Source: Squalus acanthias
Taxonomy: Eukaryota
Length of the DNA: 64,000 nt
Direction of reading: 5' to 3'
Assembly: GCA_030390025.1 (NCBI GenBank)
Contig: CM059427.1
Span: forward strand, 152,024,001-152,088,000
Shown: one piece after another, positions 875-64,000 of the stretch
How positions within the stretch are numbered: position 1 is the stretch's first letter
Layout of the letters: each line of letters begins with the position of its first letter
The notes under the pieces: model-generated
Told to the model about the DNA's origin: nothing
The model's input: only the letters and a program-made list of their open reading frames with translations
Database searches by the model: none
Translations under genes and position numbers: made by a program

Positions 875-3800
875 GGAACAGTAACAGTGGTTATGTTACT
901 GGACTAGTAATCCAGAGGCCTAGACTAATGATCCGAGACATGAGTTCAAATCCCACCATGACATCTGGGAAATTTAAATTCCATTAAGTAAATCTGGAAT
1001 ACAAAGCCAGTATCAGTGACCATGAAACTATCAGATTGTCGTAAAAACCCATCTGGTTCACTAATGTCCTTTTAGGGAAGAAAATCTGCCGTCCTTGCCT
1101 GGTCTGGCCGAAATGTGACTCCAGACCCACAGCAATGTGGGTGACTCTTAACTGCCCTCTGAAATGGCCTAGCAAGCCACTCAGTTGTAACAAAACCACT
1201 ACGAGAAACTATAATAAGAAAACCGGAAGGACCACCCGGCATTGACCTCTGCACCGGCTTCGGACACGACAGCGGCATACCCAGCCTAGGCGACCATGCA
1301 AAGTCCTCCTCACTAACATCTGGGAACGTGTGCCAAAATTGGGAGAGCTGTCCCACAGACAAGTCGAGCACCAGCCTGACATGTCATACTTGCAGAATCA
1401 TACCTTCCAGCCAATGTCCCAGACTCCTCCATCGCCATCCCTGGGTATGTCCTGTCCCATCCGCAGGACTAGACCCACCAGACGGGGCGGCACAGTGGTA
1501 TACAGTCGGGAGGGCATGGCCTTGGGAGCCCCCAACGTCCACTCCGGATCCCATGAAGTCTCATGGCTTTAGGTCAAGCATGGGCAAGGAAACCACCTGC
1601 TCATTACCACCTACCACCCTCCCTCAGCTGATGAATCAGTACTCCTCCATGTTGAACACCACTTTGAAGAAGCGCTGAGGGTAGCAAGGGTACAGAAAGT
1701 ACTCTGGGTGGGGGACATCAATGTCCATCATGGTAGCACCACTACTGACCGAGCTGGCCGAGTCCTGAAGGACATAGCTACCAGATTGGGCCTGCAGCAG
1801 GTGGTGAGAGAGCCAACACAAGGGGAAAAACCTACTTGACCTCGTCCTCACCAGTCTACCTGTTGCAGATGCATCTGTCCATGACAGCAGTGATCACTGT
1901 ACAGTCCTTGTGGCGACGAAGTCCCATTTTCACACTGAGGACACCCTCCATCATGTTGTGTGGCTCTACCACCGTGCTAAATGGGATGGATTTAGAACAG
2001 ACCTAGCAGCTCAAAACTGGGCATCCATGAGGCGCTGTGGGGCAGCAGCAGCAGAATTGAATTCCACCACAACCTGTAACCTCATGGCCTGGCATATCCC
2101 TCACTCTACCACTACCATCAAGCCAGGGGACCAACCCTGGTTCAATGAGGAGTGTGGAAGAGCCTGCCAGGAGCAGCAACAGGTGTACTTAATGAGGTGC
2201 CAACCTGAGGAAGCTGCAACACATTACATGCATGCTAAACAGCAGAAGCAGCATGCTATAGATAGAGCTAAGCGATCCCACAATCAATGGATCCGATCAA
2301 AGCCCTGCAGTTCTGCCACATCTAGTCGTGAAAGGTGGTGGACAATTAAATAACTAACAGGAGGAAGAGGCTCCATGAATATCCCCATCCTCAATGATGG
2401 TGGAGCCCAGCACATGAGTGCAAAAGACAAGGCTGAAGCGTTCACAACCATCTTCAGCCAGAAGTGCCAAGTGGGTGATCCATATCGGCCTCCTCCTGAG
2501 GCCCCCACCATCACAGAAGCAAGTCTTCAGCCAATTCGATTTGCTCCATGTGATATCCAGAAACGGCTGAGCGCACTGGATACAGCAAAGGCTATGGGCA
2601 CAGACGACAGCCCGGCTGTCGTGCTGAAGATGTACTCCAGAACTAGCCGCGCCTCTAGGCAAACTGTTCCAGTACAGCAACAACATTGGCATCTACCCGA
2701 CTGTGGAAAACTGCCCAGGTATGTCCTGTCCACAAAGAGCAGGACAAATCCAATCCGGCCAATTACCGCCCCATCAGTCTACTCTCCATCAGCAAAGTGA
2801 TGGAAGGTGTCATTGACCGTGCTATCAAGAGGCACTTACTCACCAATAACCTGCTCACTGATGCCCAGTTTGGGTTCTGCCAGGACCACTAGGCTCCAGA
2901 CCTCATTACAGCCTTGGTTCAAACATGGACAAAAGAGCTGAATTCCAGAAGTGAGGTGAGAGTGATTGCCCTCGACATCAAGGCAGCATTTGAACGAGTG
3001 TGGCATCAAAGAACGCTGTAAAATTGAAGTCAATGGGAATTGAGGAAAACTCTCCACTGGCTGGAGTCATACCTCGCATGTAGGTTGTTGGAGATCAATC
3101 GTCTCAGCCTCAGGACATCGCTGCAGGAGCTCCACAGGGCAGTGTCCTAGGCCCAACCATCTTCAGCTGCTTTATCAGTGACCTTCCCTCCATCATAAGG
3201 TCAGAAGTGAGGATGTTCGCTGATGACTGCAGTGTTCAGTTCCATTCTTAAAAGAATGGGTCTTAAAAGAAGTGGCTGCAGAGATAGTGGATGCATTGGT
3301 TGCAATATACCAAAATTCCCTGGACTCTGGAGAGGTCCCAGCGGATTGGAAAACCACTAATGTAACACCCCTATTTAAGAAAGGAGGGAGACAGAAAGCC
3401 GGAAACTATAGACCAGTTAGCCTAATATCTGTCGTTGGGAAAATGCTGGAGTCCTTCATTAAGGAAGCAGTAGCGGGGAATTTAGAAAAACATACTGCAG
3501 TCAAACAGTCAGCATGGTTTTGGGAAAGGGAAACCATGTTTAACAAATTTGCTGGAGTTCTTTGAGGATGTAACAAGCAGGGTGGACAAGGGTGAGCCAG
3601 TGGATGTGGTGTATTTGGATTTCCAGAAAGCATTCGATAAGGTGCCACATAAAAGATTACTGCATAAGATAAGAGCTCACGGAGTTGGGGGTAATATATT
3701 AGCATGGATAGAGAATTGGCTAACTAACAAAGCAGACAGTCGGGATAAATGGGTCATTTTCTGGTTGGCAAACGGTAACTAGTGGGGTGCCACAAGGATC

Positions 3801-5460
3801 GGTGCTGGGGCCCCAACTATTTACAATCTACATTAATGACTTGGATGAGGGGATCGAGTGTAATGTAGCCAAGTTTGCAGATGATGCAAAGATGGGTGGG
3901 AAAGCAAGTTGTGCAGAGGACTCGAATCTGCAAAGGGATATAGACAAGCTAGGTGAGTGGGCAAACATTTGGCAGATGGAGTATAATGTGGGAAAGTGCG
4001 AGCTTATCCACTTTGGCAGGAAAAATAAAAAAGCAAATTATTATTTAAATGGAGAGAGATTACAAAATGCTACAGTTCAGAGGGACCTGGGGGTCCTTAT
4101 GCATGAAATGCAAAAAGTTAGCATGCAGGTACAGCAAGTAATCAAAGACAAATGGGATTTTGGCCTTTATTTCAAGGGGGTTGGAGTATAAAAGCAGGGA
4201 AGTCCTGCTACAACTGTACAGGTATTGGTGAGACCACACCTTGAGTACTGCGTACAGTTTTGGTCTCCTTATTTAAGGAAGGATATACTTGCATTGGAGG
4301 CAGTTCAGAGACGATTCACTAGGTTAATTCCAGAGATGAGATGAGTTTGACTTATGAGGAAAGGTTGAGCAGGTTGGGCCTATACTCATTGGAATTTAGA
4401 AGAATGAGAGGTGATCTTATCGAAACATATAAGATACTGAGGGGGCTTGACAAGGTAGATGCAGAGAGGATGTTTCCCCTCTTGGGGAAATCTAGAACTC
4501 GGGGGCACAGTCTCGGAATAAAAGGTCGCCCTTTTAGAACTGAGATGAGGAGGAACTTCTTCTGAGGGTTGTAAATTTGTGGAGTTCTCTGCCCCAGAGA
4601 GCTGTGGAGGCTGGGTCATTAAATACATTTAAAGTGGAGATAGTTAAATTTTTGCAAGATAAGGGAGTGAAGGGTTATGGGGAGCAGGCAGGGAAGTAGC
4701 TTTGAGCCCAAGATCAGCCATGATCTTATTAAATGGCGGAGCAGACTAGAGGGGCCAAGTGCCCGATTCTTGCTCCTATTTCTTATGTTCATTCGTAACT
4801 TCTAATAATGAAGCAGTCCATGCCCGTATGCAACAAGACCTGGACGACATTCAGGCTTGGGCTGATAAGTGCCATTCGCACCACACAAGTGGCTGGCAAT
4901 GACCATCTCCAACAAGCGAGAGTCTAACCACCGCCCACTGACATTCAATGGCGTTAACATCACCAAATCCCCCACCATCAACATCCTGGGGGCTACCATT
5001 GACCAGAAACTTAACTGGACCAGCCACATAAATATACATACTGTGGCAACAAGAGCAGGTCAGAGGCTGGGTATTCTGCGGCGAGTGTCTCACCTCTTGA
5101 TTCCCCAAAGTCTTTGAACCATCTACAAGGCACAAGTCAGGAGTGTGATGGCAAACTCTCCACTTGCCTGGATGAGTGCAGCTGCAACAACACAAGAAGC
5201 TCGACACCATCCAGGACAAAGCAGCCTGCAAGTTCCCCTCCAAGTCTCACACCATCCTGACTTGGAAGTATATTGTCGTTCCTTCATCGTCGCTGGGTCA
5301 AAATCCTGGAACTCCCTCCCTAACAGCACTGTGGGAGAACCTTACCACAAGGACTGCAGCGGTTCAAAAAGGCAGCTCGCCACCACCTTCTGAAGGGCAA
5401 TTAGGGATGGGCAATAAATGCTGGCCTTGCCAGCGATACCCACATCCCAGGAACAAATAA
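875..5460 (+). mobile_element. CR1-group LINE 'family A': tRNA-like 5' head, frameshifted APE endonuclease-RT, 3' tail; interrupted at 3248-4789
   Basis: Head has A-box-like agtggtta and B-box GAGTTCAAATC (~941). EN motifs follow (PKLGELSHR, RGGTVVYS), then RT motifs (QVCPVHKEQDKSNPANYRPISLLS, GSVLGP, MFADD at ~3213-3227, SWNSLPNSTVG). Tail ends GGGCAATAAATGCTGGCCTTGCC...CCCACATCCC...AATAAAA. Many stops and frameshifts. Confidence 0.85.
3248..4789 (+). mobile_element. 5'-truncated CR1 LINE 'family B' (RT region + 3' UTR) inserted into family A
   Basis: ORF fragments VPADWKTTNVTPLFKKG, VYLDFQKAFDKVPH, PQGSVLGP, KFADD, LERRRMRGDL-type motif; tail TTTCTTATGTT. CATTC is present at both junctions (3243-3247 and 4790-4794). 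Confidence 0.92.
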
Positions 5461-8400
5461 AAATAAGGATTTTAGGATGAGGATGAGATTTTGAAATGAC
5501 TATGTCGGGCGAGATGGAGCTACTGCTGGGCAAACGTTGGGATACTGCAAAGGTAGCAGTGTTCCAGAGCTGCAAGTGGGATTTGAGTTTCAGCTGTAGA
5601 TTGAGCAAGAGACTGGTTGCAGCCTGAGTGAGCAGTTGGTGATGGAACTAGGTGAAGATATAGTGGTTTGTTTTTTTGGAAGCTGTATATGATGGTTTCA
5701 ATTTTCCCATTGAATTTGGCATGTCCACAACTTGGTGTTAAGCGGACGGTCTTGACTGTGCAGAGGAGTTATGTGGTAGAGAGGTGGAGCAGAATGTGAT
5801 CAGTGTACACGTGGAAACTGATCCTATTTCTTTGAATTATGTGATCTTTGAGGGGAAGCAGGTAAATAAGGAAAAAAGAGGGTATGGAGGATGGAACCTT
5901 TGATTATACCAGAGGTGATCTATTAGAGGTGGGAGAAGAAGCCATTGTGAAAATACTCTAGCCACTTTGGGACAAGTATAAGTGGGACCATGGAAGAGCA
6001 AAATATTCCAAGGTGCTTCATGAATGAGTACGGTGGAGGAAGCTGACCGAGGAGAAATTAATGATGTGTAAGGCTGAAAGCATGTTCGAGGATAATTTTA
6101 AGGTGACTTTTGTAGGTGGACAAAGCTGTCAAAAGGTAAAGGAGTTGGAGTGTGGGGAGCATGATAGTTGTTGGAACTAAGGATGGGGTGCTGGGCGTAC
6201 GGTGCGAATGCACAGGCCAGTATAGTTTGGGGGTTTGTATGCCCCCTGAATATAGTAAATGCTATAGTAAAGCTCTCAATGTAGATTATAATTTGTAATT
6301 TTGGAAACACTCGATTTGGTGAAGCCCTGAACTAGTAAGAGTTTAACAAGTGGACGCTGGTTTAAACAGATAGTTTGGGGGTAGATCAGTCTGTGAATTT
6401 CCATGTTTTTACTTGTTGAAGTAGTCCTATAAAACATCTGTTCTGCCTCTGCTCAAAACTAGAGGCTGCATTACTCATTTAAATACGCCAAAACCATTTT
6501 TTTTTCAGTGGCAACAATGGAGGTTAATTTGTTTTGTGCTTGCTGGTAAAGACTATTATAGTAACTTAAACTGCTATTATGCTACAGACATAGCTAGGTA
6601 ATGTCAAATCTTTTTGTTTCTGCCAACTCTTGCAATGAAAAGAATTCAGTGTATCAGCTGGCATTTTTAACTGTTGATTATTCATCTGCCTTTTAATTGG
6701 CGGATATAAAACAGCTGATGGATGGATTACAGCTAGCATTTCCTACTGAACACTATTTACATTTATAGTGCAAGCTTTTCCGAGATAGTCCAGAGATGTT
6801 TTTAAGTATCTAATAAGACAGTTGTATCTATTTGGTGGACAGCATTGGGATATAATGGCCCACTTTCTTTCATAATTATGGATATAACCCCTTCACCTGG
6901 TTCTTTTGATAATTTGACTTGTAACAAATTATATACCATATGTTCATTATGTAACAAGGGGTTAAGATAATTCTGCAGTTTGAGGTTGTAATATGGCTGT
7001 ACCCTTTTGCTTGCTGGCCAGCATAAAAGCCAGCAGTAGTTGGAGGGTACAGCACTGTGTTTAATTTAGAGTTGTCCAACATGTCCTCTAAGACCTGGCA
7101 GCCTGACCAATCCCAGGCAGCTCAGTATTATTTGCACTTGTACTTCATATTTTCTTTTTTGTCCTGTTGCATTTTGTGGGCCTGCAGCTTTATTGGTGGA
7201 AGAATACTAAGATTTGTTTGTATTAGTGACTTCAAATATATGCAAATTAATGAACATGGATTTAAACTTTACATGTGACCCTCAAGACTCTTAAGTGATC
7301 CACAAGGACAAAACTTTTGGCTTAATTGAAGCTCTGAGATGGTGCTGTTTTGTTTTACTATTCAGTATTTTTACTAATACTGAGATAATAGAGGCCTTAT
7401 GTGCCTGTCCTTTTCAAATACACAGAAACAAAGTCTTGTACTCTATTGGATCCAGAATTGGGGTTAATTTCTTCTATCAATAAAGTGCAAGTGTTTTATA
7501 CTGTATGAATGCATCTATTGTACCACAGAAGTATGAAGTGGTTTTAGTGAAAATGACTTGCTTTGTAACTTTCTTCATTCTGTCACTGGTTAATAATGGC
7601 ACTGTTTTTTCAGTAAATGCTGGACCTTCCTTAGTTGGGCTTTCATTTATTAAATTCTGAATCCAACAAAATCATGCCAAATTAATATTTGACACTTTGT
7701 ACTTACACAATGAAGATGTACAAATTTAACAGCTGACTCAGTTCAATTTTTTAATTTTAAAATGTTATTGAGAAATGGATGAATAATTCTTAATTTATAG
7801 CTCTGAATTCTGTACATTGCATATCAAATATACAAGGGGCAATTACCATCATGTTTTGGTACTAGAGAGATTTTTTTTAATAGAAACTAAAAGGAAGGTT
7901 ACAGTTTAGTATGGTAGGTAGATGAAGTGGTTAAGTGCTTACCTTTGGAATTTGAGGTGCTGGCCTTGCTTTCAGTTGAACTAATTTTGCACAGATGAGT
8001 TAGTTTTATCTTTTCTCAAATGTGGGTGGGGGAACAGGAGTAAAGGAAAAAGACCATTATAAGAGAATTCCACCTGTTATCTGGTCAGGCAATGAAGCTT
8101 GTGAACAAACAGTCCCTCTCATCTTAGCTGGAGGTGAATTTGTGGTAAATGAAGGAAGGGGTGGCCGGGAAGAACACTGTTCAGTATGGAAGAAATGGGA
8201 AAAATCTTTTGCTCTTCAGAGTTGGGTCGTAACGTACATAGTTTAAAAAGCACCTACTTCCAGATATGTTTTTCCTCTAAGAGCACGTCAGTTAAAAGAC
8301 AAATTGTTGCGTTTTCAAATAAATGTGTTCATTTATGATATTATTTAAGTTGTTTTTGTCACACAAGGCATGAATCGTGCTGATTGAGTTTGGACCAGTT

Positions 8401-16622: not shown

Positions 16623-17690
16623 AAGAACAACTTGCATTTATATAGTGCCTTTAATGAAGAAAAACATGCAAGGTGTTTCACAGAAGCAAAGGAGGAGATA
16701 TTGGGATAGGTAACTCGAAGCTTGGTCAGAAGTGGATCTTGAAGGAGGAGGGGGAAGACAGGTTTGATGAAGTCCAGAGCTTGGGGCCTAAATGGCTGAA
16801 GGCATGGCTGCCAGTGGTGGGGGGAAAATAAAGGGATTTTGAGTTGCGTAAGCGGCCAGAGTAGGAGGGATAGAGTTATGAGGGTTGTAGGAGGTTAGAA
16901 ATAGGGAGGAGAGCAGTCATGAAGGTATTTGAACACCAGGACGAGAATTTTAAGTTTGAGGTGTTGGGGGACTGGGAGTCAATGTAAGTCAACAAGTTCA
17001 GTTGTGATGGGTGAGTGGAACCTGGTGTGGATTAGGATACAGACTGCAGAGTTTTGGATGAGCTGATTTTTTTTTAATTCTCTGGATCTGGGTATCTCTG
17101 TCGAGGCCAGAATTTATTGCCCATCCCTAGTTGCCTTTAAAAAGGTCGTGGTGACCTTCTTGAACAGTTGCAGTCCCTGTCATGAAGGTACTCCCACAAT
17201 ACTGTTGGGTAGGGAATTCAAGGATTTTGACTCCGCAATGATGAAGGTACAGCAATATATGTCCAAGTTGGAATGGAGTGTGACTTGGAGGTGATGGTGC
17301 TTCCATGCACTTGCTGCCCTTGTCCTTCGAGATGGCAGAGGTCACAAGTTTGTTGGGTGTTTCTGAAGAAGCTTTGCTGACTTGTTGCAATGCATCCTGT
17401 AGATTAATACATACTGCAGCCATGGTATGCCAGTGGTTGTTTATAGAGGGTGTAGGATGGGAGGATGGCCACGAGAGCATTGGAAATAGTCAAGTCTGGA
17501 GGTAGCATAGGCATGGATGAGGGTTTTGCTGATGGGTGATATTATTTAGGTGGAAGTAGGCTGTCTTTGTGATGGAGAGGCTATGGGGTTGGAAATGCAG
17601 CGCAAGGTGAAATCCAGTGCTGAGGTTTAGAAACATCTGGTTCAATCTGAGACTAGCCAGGGAGGGGAATAGAATTTCAACTAATGTAAA
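16623..17690 (-). mobile_element. L2 LINE 3' portion interrupted by a family A fragment
   Basis: Reversed L2 tail (aacaacttgcatttatatagtgccttt...). The L2 motif 'ttttggatgagctga|gtttatagaggg' is split at 17066/17439. Confidence 0.8.
17067..17438 (-). mobile_element. Family A LINE 3' fragment nested in L2
   Basis: Poly-T followed by the reverse complement of the family A tail (atttattgcccatccctagttgcc...) and the RT C-terminus. Confidence 0.85.
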
Positions 17691-23399: not shown

Positions 23400-24690
23400 C
23401 TTTCTTTTCCACCCATTATCTCTCTCTTCCACCCATTTGTCTCCTGAAGGCCTTGATGACTACTATTGGTACCTTGTCCAAGTAGGCTCCCTTCATATGC
23501 AGGTCTAAACAGTGAGCATTGATGGGCTATTTAACTATAGAGGGCATTGCAGTTGAGCCATATTTTCACGTCTCAATTTGCAAGTTCCTTAGAGATTACT
23601 GAATAATGATAGGAGTAGGAGCCCTGGCCGTCTTTCTCCTTCCTTCTCTTTCCTCCTCTCCCCCACCCCCCAAAGGTGCTGAGGCTAATTGTAAAGCCCC
23701 TACGATACAAAGATAGGTGGGAATGCAACTTGAGGAGGACAGAGTCTGCAAAGAGATATAGATAGGTTAAGTGAGTGGGCAAAAACTTGGCAGATGGAGT
23801 ATAATGTGGGAAAATGTGAGGTTATCCACTTTGGTAGGAAGAATAGAAAAGCAAAATATTATTTAAATGGAGAGACTACAGAATGCTCTGGTCCAGAGGG
23901 ATCTGGGTGTCCTCGTATATGAAACACAAAGTTAGCATGCAGGTACAGCAAGTAATTAGGAAGGCAAATGGAATGTTGGCCTTTATTGCTAGGGGGGGTG
24001 GAGTGTAAAAGTAGGGAAGTCTTGCTACAACTGTACAGGGCATTGATGAGACCACACCTGGAGTACTGCGTGCAGTTTTGTTATTTAAGGAGGGATATAC
24101 TTCCATTGGAGACAGTTCAGAGAAGGTTCACTAGGTTGATTCCTGGGATTGATGGGGTTGTCTTATGAGGAAAGGTTGAGCAGGTTGGGCCTATACTCAT
24201 TGGAGTTTAGAAGAATGAGAGGTGATATTGAAACATGTAAGATTCTGAAGGGGCTCGACAGGGTAGTTGCTAAGAGGATGTTTCCCTTGGTGGGGGAATC
24301 TAGAACTAGGGGGCATATTTTCAGAATAAGTGGTCGCTCATTTAAGACAGAGATGAGGAGGAATTTCTTCTGAGGGTTGTGAATCTTTGGAATTCTCTAC
24401 CCCAGAGAGCTGTGTAGGCTGAGTCATTGAATATATTCAAGGCTGAGATAGACAGGTTTTGAACTACAGGGGAGTCGAGGGTTATAGAGAACAGGCAGAA
24501 AAGTGGAGTTGAGGCCAAGATCAGATCAGCCATGATCTTATTGAGTGGCGGAGCAGGCTCGAGGGGCCGAATGGCCGACTCCTGCTCCTATTTCTTATGT
24601 TATGTACTAATGCCCTGATGAACCCAGTTAATTGAGAGCAGACCCAGAATTGATCTGTTTTAAGCTTTGCAATCAGCTGAGCAACTGAAA
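23400..24690 (-). mobile_element. Ancient tRNA-derived SINE (AmnSINE2-like, tentative), split by a CR1 insertion at 23704-24604
   Basis: Shares motifs with 34780-35085 and 41290-41610. Sequence 'gaggctaattgtaaagcccctac' resumes as 'tactaatgccctg' after the CR1. Confidence 0.55.
23704..24604 (+). mobile_element. 5'-truncated CR1 LINE close to family B
   Basis: Begins DTKIGG; contains [10 protein letters not shown] and LEFRRMRGD; tail TTTCTTATGTTATG. TAC flanks both ends (23701-23703, 24605-24607). Confidence 0.92.
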
Positions 24691-26390: not shown

Positions 26391-26473
26391 CCCAAGTACA
26401 GATATTATAGGATAACTGCTGTGTGGAACTTAAACTGTTAGGGCCATTTAAATATCATGCTAATAATCAAGGT

Positions 26474-29290
26474 GAACATAAGAACATAAATAGGAGCAGG
26501 AATAGGCCACTTGGCCCCTCGAGCCTGCTTCGCTATTCAATAAGATCATGGCTGATCTTGGGCTCAAAGCCACTTTCCCGCTCGCTCCCCATAACCCTTC
26601 ACTCCCTTATCTTGCAAAAATCTGTCTATCTCCACCTTAAATGTATTTAATGACCCAGCTTCCACAGATTTACGACCCTCAGAAGAAATTCCTCCTCCTC
26701 TCAGTTCTAAAAGGGCGACCTTTTATTCTAAAACTGCCCCCGCGTTCTAGATTTCCCCACGAGGGGAGACATCCTCTCTGCATCTACCTTGTCGAGCCCC
26801 CTCAGTATCTTATGTTTCAATAAGATCACCTCGCATTCTTCTAAATTCCAATGAGTATAGGCCCAGCCTGCTCAACCTTTCCTCATAACTCAACCCCCTC
26901 ATCTCTGGAATTAACCTAGTGAATCGTCTCTGAACTGCCTCCAATGCAAGTATATCCTTAAATAAGGAGACCAAAACTGTACGCAGTACTCAAGGTGTGG
27001 TCTCACCAATACCCTGTACAGTTGTAGCAGAACTTCCCTGCTTTTATACTCCAACCCCTTTGAAATAAAGGCCAACATTCCATTTGCCTTTTTGATTGCT
27101 TGCTGTACCTGCATGCTAACCTTTTGTGTTTCATGCACAAGGACCCCCAGGTCCCCCTGAACTGTAGCATTGTGTAATCTCTCTCCATTTAAATAATTTG
27201 CTTTTTTATTTTTCCTGCCAAAGTGGATAACCTCGCACATTCCCACGTTATACACCATCTGCCAAATGTTTGCCCACTCACTTAGCCTGTCTATATCCCT
27301 TTCCAGATTCTGAGTGCTCTGCACAACTTGCTTTCCCACCCATCTTTGTATCATCCGCAAACTTGGCTACATTACACTTGGTCCCTTCATCCAAGTCATT
27401 AATGTAGATTGTAAATAGTTGAGGCCCCAGCACCGATCCCTGTGGCACCCCACTAGTTACCGTTTGCCAACTGGAAAATGACCCATTTATCCCGACTTTC
27501 TGCTTTCTGTTAGTTAGCCAATTCTCTCTCCATGCGAATATATTACCCCCAATTCCGTGAGCTCTTATCTTATGCAGTAATCTTTTATGTGGCACCTTAT
27601 TGAATACCTTCTGGAAATCCAAATACACCACATCCACTGGTTCACCTTTGTCCACCCTGCTCGTTACCTCCTCGAAGAACTCCAGCAAGCTTGTTAAACA
27701 TGATTTCCCTTTCATAAAACCATGCTGACTCTGCTTGACTGCATTATGATTTTCCAAATGCCCTGCTACTGCTTCCTTTAATGAAGGACTCCAGCATTTT
27801 CCCAATGACAGATGTTAGGCTAATTGGTCTATAGTTTCCTGCTTTGTCTCCCGCCTTTCTTAAATAGGGGTGTTACATTTACGGTTTTCCAATCTGCTGG
27901 GACCTCTCCAGAGTCCAGGGAATTTTGGTATATTGCAACCAATGCATCCACTATCTCTGCAGCCACTTCTTTTAAGACCCTGGGATGCAGGCCATCTGGT
28001 CCAGGGGACTTATTATCTTTTAGTCCCATTATTTCCTTAGTGATAGTGATTGTCTTTAGTTCCCCCCCTTCCTGTGGCCCCTTGATTATCCATTATTGGG
28101 ATGTTGTTCATGTCTTCTACCGTGAAGACAGATACAAAATATTTGTTCAGAGTCTCTGCCATTTCCCTGTTCCACATTGTTAATTCCCCAGTCTCATCCT
28201 CTAAGGGGCCAACATTTACTTTAGCTACCCTCTTTTTTTATATACCTGTAAAAGCTCTTACTATCTGTTTTAATGTTTCTTGCCAGTTTACTCTCATAAT
28301 TCATCTCTTTTTTTAGTCATCCTTTGCTGGTTTTTAAAAATTTCCCAATCCTCTGGTCTCCCACCAATCTTGGCAACATTGTATGCCTTCATTTTCAATT
28401 TGATACCATCCTTTAATTCCTTAGTTAGCCACGGATGGTGCTCCCTTCTCTTAAAATCTATCTTTCTCTCTGGAATATATTTTTGTTGAGAGTTATGAAA
28501 TATCTCAAATTTCAACTGTCTTACCCTTTCATTTATTTTTCCAGTCCACTTTAGCCAGTTCTGCCCTCATGCCACTGTAATTGCCTTTGTTTAAGATCAG
28601 GACACTGGTTTGAGAGACAACTTTCTCACCCTCCAACTGAATTTGAAATTCAACCATGCTATGATTAGTCTTTTAGAGGATCCTTTACTATGAGATCACT
28701 TATTAATTCTGTCTCATTACATAGTACCAGATCCAAGATAGCCTGCTCCCTGGTTGGTTCCATTACATACTGTTCTAGGAAACCATCCCAGATGCACTCT
28801 ATGAACTCCTCCTCAAGGCTACCATGGCCAATTTGATTTGTCCAATCAATATGGAGATTAAAATCACCCATGATTATTACCATACCTTTTTAACAGGCCT
28901 CCATTATTTGTTTTATACTCTGTCCAACAGCATTGCTACTGTTCGGGGGCCTGTAGACTATGCCCACCAGAGACTTTTCCCCTTTATTATTTTTTATCTC
29001 CACCCAAACCGATTCTACATCTTGATCTTCTGAGCCAATATCACTTCTCACCACTGCACTGATCCCATCCTTTACCAACAAAGCCCCCCCACCTCCTTTT
29101 CCTTTCTGTCTGTCCTTCTGAATTGTCAAATACCCTGGAATATTCAGTTCCCAGCCCTGGTCACCTTGCAGCCACGTCTCAGTAATGGCGATCGGATCAT
29201 ACCCATTTGTGCCGTCAACTCATCTATCTTGTTACGAATGCTGCGTGCATTCAGATATAGAGCTTTTAACTTTGTCTTTTTACCATTTCT
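26474..29290 (-). mobile_element. CR1 LINE family B, near-complete but decayed ORF2 (APE + RT)
   Basis: Starts near YLNARSIRNKIDEL (~29257). Contains GIVYRPPNS, MGDFN, KSPGPDGLHPRVLKE, PQGSVLGP and KFADDTK. Tail gaacataagaacataa. Closely similar to 3248-4789. Confidence 0.93.
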
Positions 29291-33969: not shown

Positions 33970-34370
33970 GGGAACGGTAGCATAGTGGTTACTGAACTAG
34001 TAATCCAGAAGCCTGGACTAATGATCCGGACACAAGTTCAAATCCCACCACGGCAGCTGGGGAATTGAAATTCAGTTAAATTAAATCTGGAATTTAAAAA
34101 AAGCTAGTATCAGTAATAGTGACCATGAAACTACCGGATTGTCATAAAAACCCATCTGGTTCACTAATGTCCTTTTTAGGGAAGGAAATCTGCCATCCTT
34201 TTCTGGTCTGGCCTATATGTAACTCCAGACCCACAGCAATGTGATTAACTCTTAACTACCCTCTGAAATAGTGGCTCACCTTCTCAAGGGCAATTAGGGA
34301 TGAGCAATAAATGCTGGCCTTGCTGGCAATGCCCACATCCCATGAACGAATATAAATATTAAAAAAAAAA
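33970..34370 (+). mobile_element. tRNA-derived SINE made of the family A 5' head (~290 nt) joined to the family A 3' tail
   Basis: 33970-34270 aligns by eye with 875-1165 (A box TAGCATAGTGG, B box AGTTCAAATCC). 34270-34350 aligns with 5372-5455. Ends in an A-rich tail. Confidence 0.9.
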
Positions 34371-38160: not shown

Positions 38161-39713
38161 TTATACTTCACATTCTTTATAAGGCAGCTGCTGACATTTG
38201 CATTGTCCGTAACCATTTATGATCACCAGTGCGCCTTCCTCATGGGTGGGCTCATATTCATTATAGGGTACTTGTGTAGATAAATCTGCCATAGGCTGCC
38301 TGGCTTGGTGGCGAATTTGCCTTCGGTGTTGCATCATGGAGCAGTGCCTTATACGTCTCAGGGTAGGGGGGCAGCATTTCCGTGAAATGTACACCACGAG
38401 GATAATGAGGAAAAAAGAGAACAATAGAGCCATTGTTCCAGTTATTATCCTGTGAGTAAAGAGAGTATTATCGGGCTCAAGGAAGTCTTCAGCAGTTGTT
38501 TCTATAGTTGGGTTTTCAGTATCCTCTGTACTGGAGTCTGTAGATGTTAATTTTGTTACATATTCAGTAGTTTCTGGCTGTTGTGCAGCATCTGTATAGC
38601 CAGTGGTTATTTGTGTGGTGGTTGCTGAAAGATTACTGCAGATTTGAAATCCATGAACAGCATCTAAGATGTCCTCGCCTTGTGTGTGCTCTGGGCTAGC
38701 ACAGACCATTGAGTTCTCCCATCGACCTTGGAAATTGCTTAGCCAGGAGGCCAGGGCACAAATATTTCTGTTACAAACCCACATGTTGCCAGAAAGACCG
38801 ATGTGAGTTAGAGATTTCCACGAGTTAACAATCTGAGCATCCAGGGTGGTGAGCTTGTTTGAATCCATCAGAAGTATCTTTAGGTTCGGCATTGTAAGGA
38901 AAACAAGAGGGTCAATTGTTCTAATCTCATTTCCAGTTACATCGAGCTTTTCCAGTGTGTCCCAGGTCCATTCCATTCCACATAACAGGATACTAATTTT
39001 GTTCCACTGCAAAAATAGTGTTTGAAGACTGATTAGCCGAGGGAAATGAGCAAAATTAATCTTTGTCAGCTGGTTGTGCTCTAGGTGAAGCTCCTTGAGT
39101 TTGATTAATCCTGCAAAGCCATTACGAGCCAGACTTCGCAAACGATTGTTGCTTATATCCAAAAACTCCAGGCTTCGGCAGTCCCAGAAAACCCTTATGG
39201 GGATGGTCCTTAGTGAATTGGAACGCAGATGTAGTGTCTGAAGTTTCCGTAAGCTGTGGAATTGCTCTGGTTGCAGCGAAGTAATTTGATTAAATGACAA
39301 GTCCAGGTTCTGCAAGTTAATCAGTTGGCTGAATGTAGTATTCGCCAGACGCACAATCCTATTGTAGCTGAGGATTAATTCTTTAAGTTTGTATAGTCCT
39401 TGGAAGGCATCCTCTTGAATAACAGAAATCTGGTTGTGATCTAAATAGAGCCACGTAAGTTGGCTGAAGCTTGTAAGCTGATCGTTTTGCAGTTCAACAA
39501 AACTGTTGTGCCTGAGCGACAAGCCGATAGACCCGTGGGAGACATTATCGGGTACTCCTTGAAAACCTTGGGAATCGCAGTAAAAGAGCAGCTCCTCGCA
39601 TCTGCATTTTTGTGGACATGCTGTGCCTGAGGCAGGCAGCATTTTCAACAACATGCTCATCACACACAATGCCACCGTTGTTGGCCCCCCCAATGGCCAC
39701 TTCGAATGCAAAC
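38161..39713 (-). CDS. LRRTM2: Leucine-rich repeat transmembrane neuronal protein 2, exon 2 (almost all of the 518-aa CDS)
   Basis: Acceptor ...cctacAG|GT TTG CAT TCG AAG TGG. Signal peptide, LRRNT (CPQKCRC), 10 LRRs, LRRCT, Thr-rich stalk, TM (IITGTMALLFSFFLIILVVYI) and C-terminal LPYKECEV. Nested antisense in CTNNA1 intron 7, as in mammals. Confidence 0.97.
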
Positions 39714-39991
39714 CTGTAGGTGGCAATCAAATGAAATTCATTTAGGTTTCCAGCCTAAACAGTCCATCATATATGGTGATTTAGGTGTTTCATCCCCCTC
39801 CCCCACAAAAGCTGTTGTAGCTAACGATGATCAAATTGTAAGACGTGATTTTGTTTTCAAGAAGGAGAAACATTCTATTTGTTTCCAACAAAATAAGTAA
39901 TTTGCTCCTCCTTCCCCCTCCATCCCCTGCAACCCTTGTGTTCCCCTCCCATCTGGGTTTTGAAAATCCCATTTGAAAAGAAAACACTTAC

Positions 39992-42705: not shown

Positions 42706-45278
42706 TTACTGGTCAGCATTTAGATTGGTTCCCACCTTCCCCAAATCTCATTGTCATCTTGATGCTACTTCTAAATGCCTGAACTCCCAATTTAGTGAGT
42801 TTTGTATGGGACTACAGCTAATTGTGACAGAAAATGAAGGCATGTAGACCTGTCCATAGATTCAGGCAGAACAAAACATCATAATTGTACACATTTGCAA
42901 CGCACACTTTGATGCATGATTTTACAGAGAATTTCCAATTGTGGTGAACAGTATCTCTTGCACTGTGCTCCTCGAATTGAGTGTTGAACATTTGAGGTTA
43001 TCCTAGTATGAAATCATTTCTATACGGCAAGGTTTTTTCAGAAGCAAACGATTACTAAACATTTTTTTAAAATGTTCAGGAACTTCTTTACATTTAAGAG
43101 CAGAGTTCCAGGTAGAAGTGGTGATATTCTTTGTACTGTTAGCAATGCAGTGCTCAAAACGTTCAGTACAGCACTGACCAAATGTTGCACCAGGATCATA
43201 AAGAAGTATGCAAGAAGGTACACTCGGCATTAGTGCTAACTGCACTGACAGATGGTAGTGTATGCAGTTAATTTTATGAACATATTTTGCATTGAAATTG
43301 CAATTGGGTCTTGGAGCCCAGTTAAAAGTAGCAATTGATTGTAGAGTAATTATACTTAAGTTTAAGCTGTAGAATATTTTGCAATTTATCTTTGCGCACA
43401 TATGTTTGTGGTTTCTCATCTTGGATATGCAAATACCATTGAAAACCAGGTGTCTTCCTTGCTGTCTTTTGGCATAAGCATATATTGGTGTTTTGCTGCG
43501 ACTTTCTTTCAAACATCCTAGATTCTGTTGTGCCCATTCCTGAGTGAAGGGGCAGATGGACAATTTACTTGCTGATGTTTACTGGTATTACAAGTCTGAT
43601 GTAACTTGTACTTATCGGTCATCTTGGTTTTAAATAGTCATGTTTGTGTGCTATGAAATTTCAAGCAGAAGCCAAATGCTGCTCATTCTTGTGCTGATTT
43701 ACATTTATGGAATGTTCTCCAATACATTTGGATGCTCTCATTCTCATTTTTAAACAAGTTTTAAATGAAAGGTTCAAATAGATTTTTTTTCCATTGGAGT
43801 GTATGTGTTTTTTTTCCACAATGCTACACTTTGGAGCCCATTTTCTTTTAAAAGGTTGTCTCTAATAGCAAATGTATGATTAGAGACAACCTGGCGAAGA
43901 ATGCAATACTGGTCGGTGCCAAAATTCCCTTGAGGTTTTTTTCCTGGTGCATCTGATTTCTATGTACCGCCAACAATAAATATAAATTAGGTCTATATGT
44001 GATGCACGAGATTTGCATCTGTGGTTGCTTTAAAGTTGCAGGTGTCACATCAAAGCAATTCTGGTTGTGCAAATCTCACACATGCGCAGTAATAGCCAAA
44101 TGCACCTGTCCGAATAAACTAGGCAGTTTCAGATTACTCTTATTCGAAGTAGTTCATAATATAAATTTTGTTTTTCACAAGTCCTTGATGGCTTTAATTA
44201 CTTAGAGCTGTCTAGAATCAGGTAACTTTTCAACAAATGGCCTGATATGTTCAGCAGCTTGTCGAGCATGTCTAAATTGTAGAAAGGGTCAGCTCTACCA
44301 TTCATATACAAAAAAAATCCTGTCCCTGAACTTTCTACTTTCATATAGAAGTCCACTAGTGCCATAATCTAAGGTCCCTGTGTATCCTGGCTAGTGTTTT
44401 GAATAGCTGCTAAAATTTAAATTAAGTTGGGGTGCTTTATTACAGAATCTATCTAAATTTAATTTTTTCCTAGAATGGGTATTGTCTGCTACTCTGTTTT
44501 GTACAGTTGTCATTCATAAGTTTCAATGCTACATTTCTGCTTCAGTAGGCTTTATATTACCATCAGTCAAATTTACTGTTCAATGTCTTGCTCTCCTTTT
44601 GCTGTACTGCCCACAATGTAGCCCTGAAGTCAATTTTAAATGGAATTTATACTGTTTGTAGTGAACAGTCTTGGAGTATAGAGACTTTACTATATTCCCC
44701 AGTTTAACTTCAACACAAATAAACATGTAACAGGTACTGACAAATGTAGTAGTAATCGTGCAAGGTTCCATGTGCATTAAATAACTAAAAATGGACCTTA
44801 AATAACTTCACATTAAGATGAGTATTTGGTGGAGAAATGTTTCTGGGGCGATGATTGAATGCAACTTAAAAAAAAATAAAAAAATTATCATTCAGAAGTG
44901 ATTTCATAGTGGCCAAAGGGATCACTTCCCTTAGGCCTCCCCTTTACTTTCTGGGGGTGCGAGTCGAATATTGATGGGTTTATAACTCTTTCGGAGAACA
45001 TCAACATCACTCTTTTTTTCAAGTGGAAGGAAAATTCCCATTCATATATTTTCCTCAGTCTGCTATTTTTATAGAAGAAAATAATAGACTAGAAAAATGT
45101 ACGTTTGATGACAAATGTAACTGGTTTGGAGGCTTTTGAGTTGGTCATCTCCGCTGCTAGGCTGTTTCGGTGACATCGGTGATGGGCCAAATCTGTGCAC
45201 CCCAGATTCATAATGTGTGGTAGGCCTCAACTTTGGACTGGTCTAAAGCCATTTTGTGCACCCTGATCCAAGTCAAAA

Positions 45279-47945: not shown

Positions 47946-48023
47946 CAAGGGCAATGAGGGACGGGCAATAAATGCTGGCTTTGCCAGCGACGCCCACATC
48001 CCATGAACAAATATTAAAAAAAC
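47946..48023 (+). mobile_element. Family A 3' tail only (extreme 5' truncation)
   Basis: caagggcaatgagggacgggcaataaatgctggctttgccagcgacgcccacatcccatgaac followed by an A-rich tail. Confidence 0.85.
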
Positions 48024-48109
48024 AACCTGAATGTTCAAATGCTAAAATAAAAACCGAAAATGCTGGAGACACTCAGCAGGTCAGGCAGCCTCTGTGAAGA
48101 GAGAAACAG

Positions 48110-63056: not shown

Positions 63057-64000
63057 AACATAGAAACATAGAAAATAGGTACAGGAGTAGACCATTCGGT
63101 CCTTCGAGCCTGCACCGCCATTCAATGTGTTCATGGCTGAACATGCTACCTCAGTACCCCATTCCTGCTTTCTCGCCATACCCCTTGATCCCCCTAGTTG
63201 TGAGTGTTATATCTAACTCCCTTTTGAATATATTTAGCGAACTGGCCTCAACAAGCTTCTGTGGAAGAGAATTCCATAGATTCACCACTCTCTGGGTGAA
63301 GAAGTTCCTCCTCAGCTCAGTCTTAAATGGCTTCCCCTTAATCCTTAGACTGTGACCCCTGGTTCTAGTTTTCCCTAACATTGGGAACATTCTGCCCGCA
63401 TCTAATTTGTCTAAACCAGTCAGGATTTTAAATGTCTCTCTAAGATCCCCCCTCATTCTTCTGAACTCCAGAGGATACAAGTTCAGTTGACCCAATCTTT
63501 CTTGATATGTCAGTCCGGCCATCCCAGGAATCAATCTAGTGAACCTTCGCTGCACTCCCTCAATAGCAAGAATGTCCTTCCTTAAGTTAGGAGACCAAAA
63601 CTGCGCACAATACTCCAGGTGTGGCCTCACCAAGGCCCTGTACAACTGCAGCATCACCTCCCTACTCCTGTACTCAAATCCCCTTACTATGAAGGCCATC
63701 ATTCCGTTTGCTTTCTTGACTGCCTGCTGCACTTGCATTCCCACCTTCAGTGACTGATGTACCATGACGCCCAGGTCTCGTTGCACCTCCCCTTTCCCTA
63801 ATCTGCCACCATTCAGGTAATAGTCCGCCTCTCTATTTTTACCACCAAAGTGGATAACCTCACATTTATCCACATTGTACTTCATCTGCCATACATTTGC
63901 CCATTCACCCAATCTGTCCAAGTCACTCTGTAGCCTCCTAGCATCCTCCTCATTGTTCACACTGCCTCCCAATTTAGTGTCATCCGCAAATTTGGAGATA
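63057..64000 (-). mobile_element. Young CR1 LINE 3' end with an uninterrupted RT C-terminal frame, running off the window
   Basis: Open frame from the window edge (ISKFADDTKLGG) to the stop at 63151; (TTTCTATG)n tail at 63057-63074. Confidence 0.93.

Follow-up and report, generated by a model that had tools for sequence, protein, structure and literature searches.

The stretch of DNA considered here (the window) comprises 64,000 nucleotides (nt) of Squalus acanthias (GenBank assembly GCA_030390025.1, contig CM059427.1, positions 152,024,001 to 152,088,000 of the forward strand) and carries at 875-5465 an element which, as recognized from its sequence, is a decayed, dead copy of the elasmobranch Zenon long interspersed element (LINE), with just one open reading frame (ORF) for an endonuclease and a reverse transcriptase (RT). 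It opens with a tRNA-like head, which would probably serve as an internal promoter, letting RNA polymerase III (Pol III) make a coding RNA. The nearest proteins found by protein search came from Heterodontus and Rhincodon, as for shark-type DNA, while a search for longer proteins gave no result and no shark DNA was found in metagenome or viral contigs. The Zenon-related features of the window, including those of a short interspersed element (SINE) with the same head, are listed below, T4 and T5 denoting runs of four and five T residues.

875-965 (+): tRNA-like head, with an A box remnant at 882-890, two short hairpins and the B box at 944-952
966-1190 (+): conserved body or 5' untranslated region (UTR), common to the SINE, carrying T4 at 1070
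1191-1296 (+): linker encoding a basic leader in the endonuclease frame, with one stop at 1243 in the window copy
1297-3245 (+): 5' part of the single ORF (APE endonuclease, tether, RT), with several frameshifts and stops
3246-4790 (+): nested, 5'-truncated canonical CR1 (family B), foreign to the Zenon element, with ATTC at both flanks
4791-5404 (+): 3' part of the single ORF, stop codon at 5402-5404
5405-5465 (+): short 3' UTR and A-rich tail, common to the SINE
17063-17440 (-): third Zenon copy, 5'-truncated, found by self-comparison of the window
33970-34360 (+): SINE, with Zenon head and body joined to the LINE 3' end, A and B boxes intact
47946-48025 (+): Zenon 3' tail fragment, 91% identity over 67 nt
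58602-59451 (-): second Zenon copy, 5'-truncated, 83-87% identity to the main copy

The preliminary description of this DNA had reported a single-ORF LINE whose endonuclease soon follows the head, and this holds, as the endonuclease starts at ~1297, only 422 nt from the 5' end, leaving one APE-RT ORF and no ORF1. Pfam matches comprise Exo_endo_phos_2 in the endonuclease part (E 0.0012, which misses the Pfam cut-off) and RVT_1 in the RT part (about 2704-3239, E 3e-9). The second copy shows that ~180 nt were lost near 5230 in the main copy, and removal of the nested CR1 with restoration of these ~180 nt gives a Zenon length of ~3.2-3.3 kb. The nested CR1 is 90% identical to 26473-27980 and groups with bird CR1 in the tree described below; the Zenon family sequence runs across its site uninterrupted (contig loose end at 3231), and the nested CR1 is younger than its Zenon host. 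Zenon copies end in an A-rich tail rather than a microsatellite (5455-5465, 58602-58610, 17063-17075 and 48010-48025), and just past the main element the flank contains T4 at 5470-5473. The preliminary description had proposed to look for target-site duplications shared by head and LINE, and none enclosing 875-5465 was found.

Type-2 promoters of Pol III have an A box near +8 and a B box 35-90 nt downstream. This layout was found by script in the SINE (A box intact at 33978, B box at 34036) and by eye in the Zenon consensus set. The tRNA-like head with A and B boxes noted earlier is confirmed, except that in the window copy only the B box (944-952) is present and the A box (882-890) is disrupted by a 2-nt loss. 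With standard tools, ARAGORN called no tRNA in the head at its default and a single weak one at a relaxed threshold, and Rfam returned no tRNA match for the head nor anything else relevant. The tRNA likeness is hence weak by such tools, and the case for it is made by the two boxes, the distance between them and their location at the 5' edge.

The Zenon family itself is already published, since Stuart et al. 2026 described Zenon LINEs in five sharks and rays, all without ORF1 and with poly-A ends (PMC13343379). In the part of that source covered here, seven elasmobranch consensus entries from five species (CarCar, HypSab, RhiTyp, ScyCan, SquAca) are visible over their first 400 nt, and these were compared by eye. 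All seven open with the same head, body and linker; the A box is intact in 7/7 and the B box in 6/7, and a 12-nt motif of the window recurs exactly in six entries and with one base changed in the seventh. The sequence between the boxes is variable, even partly deleted in stingray, while the boxes persist. Over these 400 nt the window copy matches the consensus, the closest entry as judged by eye rather than by alignment being SquAca_Zenon-1. According to the Methods, the consensus sequences were built by extension upstream from RT seeds (PMC13343379), and the head was therefore reached from LINE-only sequence. Whale-shark gene models (P0026 and P0010) also span the body into the endonuclease. 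In addition, contigs were inspected in four of 24 listed sequencing runs, from three other organisms, using the best-supported rows and without taking depth as copy number. Head, linker and endonuclease are deeply covered in all four runs, with a depth of 0-20 in the left flank; the strongest left loose end lies at 886 in each (935, 675, 923 and 104 contigs), and in every run contigs bridge 1194 with 1293 or 1297. By these three independent routes, the head is the regular 5' end of the family in sharks and rays.

These findings bear directly on the simplest alternative, by which a SINE would have inserted by chance upstream of a truncated LINE at the window locus alone. A SINE carrying this head does stand free in the window, and no target-site duplication encloses the element, as such an accident would allow; the alternative is nevertheless refuted by a head that recurs throughout the family in five species, in whale-shark gene models and in the contigs, which come from three other organisms, leaving it a negligible chance, and the view of the head as part of the family is upheld. 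In two other shark gene models, P0006 and P0004, parts of the LINE are joined to host genes, one for a CWC25 homolog (Heterodontus) and one for a PF06534 protein; both models are probably annotation artefacts.

The head was also compared with relatives, of which a protein search gave 84 loci. In 31 of these the ORF is long, the start of the endonuclease can be located and the upstream sequence reaches 400 nt or more; the distant relatives mostly have ORFs of 930-990 residues on contigs of 3-4.8 kb. A pair of A and B boxes was found in 0/31 by a script that detected two SINE controls and missed the broken head of the window copy. ARAGORN found no tRNA in 84/84 loci, a weak negative since it misses the Zenon head too. 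Three Zenon entries from hagfish and coelacanth, also read by eye over their visible part, lack the head. Because no box pair occurs in relatives with enough upstream sequence, the tRNA-type head is, on the sequences compared, an elasmobranch novelty. In a quick IQ-TREE analysis of 77 rows (two from the window and 75 kept from 87 candidates, with no named Zenon RT included), the RT of the window Zenon groups with single-ORF invertebrate elements including one of amphioxus (SH-aLRT 96), apart from the nested family B CR1 and bird CR1, and without ORF1 it is not a canonical CR1. The missing ORF1 is a Zenon trait and not a consequence of the head, and the argument that the preliminary description drew from it fails, since all Zenon elements described lack ORF1 (PMC13343379). 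Four relatives (L081, L082, L083 and L084) are eukaryote-type LINEs within bacterial metagenome-assembled genomes, L083 lying in a 716-kb contig labelled Endozoicomonas, and are likely contamination.

The SINE is 85% identical to Zenon over 895-1165, matching its first 290 nt, and has the 3' tail in common, its body being joined at ~1165 to the tail near 5384. In one sequencing run, two different positions of the tail follow the loose ends at 1188 and 1189, and several body-tail junctions suggest repeated internal deletion of the LINE. The related SINEs thus look like deletion products of Zenon. Capture of the promoter from a pre-existing SINE, as had been proposed, is accordingly not borne out, since the body holds no Deu, V or UCON3 motif and the SINEs resemble LINE deletion products. 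The Deu domain of SacSINE1 was rejected as an identity of the body, with no motif match in the window at 2 mismatches (a search with no positive control in the window) and a body that by eye differs from the printed alignment. The UCON3 motif had no match in the window at 3 mismatches, and the V-domain motif is absent from the Zenon head and body, its only match in the window, at 56611, lying in a separate SINE that served as positive control. This neighbor (56478-56790, +) is a tRNA-headed V-SINE with an exact V-domain motif and a pair of A and B boxes.

A further peculiarity concerns the translation start. The endonuclease frame was read by eye in the visible consensus 5' ends, directly to the endonuclease for stingray only and anchored on the leader in the others, and the reading phases could be displaced by errors of the consensus within a stretch rich in A. 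With this proviso, the frame is open some tens of codons upstream and encodes a basic leader in five species, and in 5/5 no in-frame AUG follows the last stop before the leader; among relatives, an in-frame upstream Met is present in 32/35. The sole linker AUG common to all five species is out of frame. AUG-GCC-UAG, found at 1164-1172 of the window within a hairpin of the body (1161-1186), precedes the frame in white shark, catshark and stingray and is out of phase in whale shark and dogfish. Two candidate starts were discarded: ATG at 1135 is in frame only in the window copy and out of frame or stopped in the consensus entries, and at the ATG at 1296 the family has C in the contigs. The missing in-frame AUG is a lead that would fit an RNA not translated by ordinary cap scanning, and the earlier suggestion of non-canonical translation agrees with this apparent lack.

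Several structures were observed in the 5' regions. At 899-936 the head contains, by eye, two similar tandem hairpins, perhaps a duplicated anticodon arm, although a 13-of-17 match test did not detect the duplication in the window copy; the stem of the second is kept between species via changes on both sides and is lost in stingray. A hepatitis delta virus (HDV)-like ribozyme pattern was found in neither the head nor the SINE, and occurred in 5/48 relatives versus 0.3 per shuffle set. Two invertebrate-type relatives have a common 10-bp hairpin upstream of the ORF (L001:608-640 and L002:450-482), kept through G-U changes. Homology of the body hairpin to it, suspected by eye, was not supported, as the local alignment did no better than shuffled sequence (its score was equalled by 689 and 320 of 1000 shuffles), and with a two-sequence covariance model of this hairpin the shark head was not among the 26 listed matches up to E 10.

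The T-runs of the sense strand provide the remaining line of evidence. The counts given earlier are all confirmed: in its 3,041 nt the Zenon sense strand holds T4 at two positions, 1070 and 1927, and nowhere T5; the second copy (841 nt) is free of T4, the nested CR1 (1,545 nt) contains six, and one T5 and one T4 occur in the SINE. From base composition, 1.3 are expected in the second copy (P 0.25) and 4.6 in the nested CR1, and the contrast with the latter is partly one of composition, because T makes up 0.21 of Zenon versus 0.25. At the level of shorter runs, TT occurs 101 times versus 130.5 expected (z -3.35), with AA unaffected (z -0.82), and TTT 11 times versus 21.5 (P 0.001); under a codon-aware null, TT occurs 70 times versus 103 (z -3.9), and the nested CR1 gives z -0.1. 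T4 at 1070 is T3 or T2 in 7/7 consensus entries and T3 in loose-end contigs, and is hence a decay product of the window copy. By eye, none of the seven elasmobranch entries shows T4 within its readable first 400 nt, and all three hagfish and coelacanth entries have T4 or longer within theirs.

Pol III normally makes only short non-coding RNAs. The reading favoured here, with a probability of about 0.55, is that the head serves as an internal Pol III promoter for the whole 3.3-kb Zenon RNA, because the boxes are conserved at the exact 5' edge, the strand is poor in TT, the headless outgroup is rich in T and the start is odd. In the proposed course, a tRNA-derived head would have been joined to the Zenon 5' end before the shark-ray split; TFIIIC would bind the boxes, and Pol III would read a coding strand nearly free of T4 and stop at the first T-run of the flank. 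The uncapped RNA would then be translated without a normal AUG start, a step proposed because the frame apparently has no in-frame AUG before the endonuclease leader, and the protein would bind the 3' tail and copy the RNA by target-primed reverse transcription, as established for LINEs, whereas internal deletions keeping head and tail would yield SINEs. For the fuller picture of an autonomous SINE-LINE hybrid, transcribed end to end by Pol III, translated without cap and in-frame AUG, kept since before the shark-ray split and parent of its own SINEs, the chances look about even.

A number of findings weigh against transcription by Pol III. The T4 count of the main copy is 2 versus 4.5 expected from base composition (P 0.19), or 1 versus 3.9 with the protein held fixed (P 0.07), and dinucleotide shuffles expect exactly the 2 seen, so that the deficit sits at the TT level, where codon or amino-acid bias (Phe 2.1%) could also explain it. 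Among 48 relatives with an ORF of at least 2,000 nt, the median is 5.5 T4 per kb versus 0.44 in the window Zenon, and the observed/expected ratio is as low as in Zenon in 1/48 for TT and 2/48 for T4, which speaks for the favoured reading, although these relatives come from other hosts and include near-duplicates. Several of them also have TT z < -3 under the same null, and relative L074 (2-2074), whose 5' end lies outside its contig, shows equal depletion of TT and T4 (T4 1 versus 4.1; TTT:TTC 2:20). Moreover, the B box of the stingray consensus is one base short, and the contigs show sequence joins and cannot show transcript starts or the polymerase. To our knowledge, there is also little precedent for an uncapped Pol III RNA being translated efficiently. 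The terminator-poor coding region of the preliminary description thus stands in part: TT and TTT are depleted and the headless outgroup is rich in T4, but the T4 count of the single copy lies within chance (P 0.07-0.19).

The strongest competitor, possible though on the whole doubtful, accepts the head as a genuine family part and has the full-length RNA made by Pol II, from its own internal promoter or by host read-through. The head would retain the boxes for a role as RNA structure (mimicking a tRNA in 5' processing or in initiation without AUG) or as a boundary to which TFIIIC binds, and the T-poverty would be codon and amino-acid bias. It is established that A and B boxes double as D- and T-loop sequences of the tRNA fold, although the present head scores poorly as such a fold and its promoter boxes are near-perfect, and this head also drives the copies of SINE type. 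In other single-ORF LINE clades the 5' ends are set by RNA structures (ribozymes; PMC5786205), but the HDV-like pattern was not found in the head. The T4 count equal to the dinucleotide-shuffle expectation and an AATAAA-like tail with poly-A suit Pol II, as do lepidopteran Zenon derivatives without a Pol III promoter (PMC6740152), whereas the loss of TT affects one strand and is not seen in the nested CR1 of this genome. Far less probable is a headless master LINE, with the RT switching from LINE RNA to abundant SINE RNA in the shared body, or gene conversion adding the head. The ~280 nt of body common to LINE and SINE would permit this, and chimeric retroposons are known to arise by template switching (PMC5499810); however, the same arrangement recurs in 7/7 consensus entries of five species, no alternative 5' end is present among the loose ends listed, and the SINEs meet the tail at differing points, as deletion products would.

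Other features of the window lie apart from Zenon. Genes of the LRRTM type usually lie in alpha-catenin introns. At 38161-39726 (-) a single 521-codon open frame matches LRRTM2 (E 7e-177 to PDB 5z8x), from which the window may be intronic. A 191-codon open frame at 43003-43578 (-) has a weak C2HC zinc-finger match (E 0.0035). Further canonical CR1 copies akin to the nested one, 67-90% identical, occupy 23704-24601 (+), 26473-27980 (-), 63065-63909 (-) and 57500-57908 (+), and three other repeat pairs are unclassified (16620-16934/18837-19208, 23017-23293/32156-32429 and 42568-42679/48034-48145).

In the customary divide between LINEs and SINEs, Pol II makes the coding element and Pol III the short parasite, a rule that a Pol III-driven coding Zenon would break. 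If the favoured reading is true, Zenon would provide a natural 3.3-kb Pol III messenger with cap- and AUG-independent initiation in a vertebrate, and a one-step origin of SINEs by deletion from a parent already bearing the promoter. Even with Pol II, a head of tRNA type, conserved in an autonomous LINE, went unremarked in the main text of the cataloguing paper, which has zero mentions of tRNA, polymerase or promoter (PMC13343379). In the literature searched, with Repbase, Dfam and subscription journals outside its scope, neither an autonomous LINE driven by Pol III nor the Zenon head was found described. The family has thousands of near-full-length copies, the denominators of Table S3 being 2,313 for white shark and 1,419 for whale shark, and a few intact copies are listed, such as 3 of 612 in stingray (PMC13343379).

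Among known systems, the elasmobranch Zenon of the catalogue is likewise a single-ORF element of ~3.3 kb with an A tail and no ORF1, without any difference at the family level, and only the head and its boxes are unremarked in the main text (PMC13343379). The lepidopteran Zenon is likewise a CR1-group LINE of 3.3-3.5 kb with a single ORF, which repeatedly yields short derivatives of 5' and 3' ends; its internally deleted derivative Persaeus has neither tRNA homology nor a Pol III promoter, unlike the shark derivative, a tRNA-headed SINE whose parent LINE bears the same head (PMC6740152). In the tRNA-headed SINEs that depend on bipartite RTE or Vingi LINEs (Kojima 2018, PMC5786205), the headed element is non-coding, and Pol II is given as the very likely polymerase of the parent LINEs; the element RTE-1_DAn of the same paper also has a tRNA-like part. 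SacSINE1, of the Deu type (PMC5499810), and the HE1-type V-SINE likewise combine a tRNA-derived head, a shark host and a LINE-derived tail, but the partner LINE of SacSINE1 is an L2 and its Deu motif is absent from the window.

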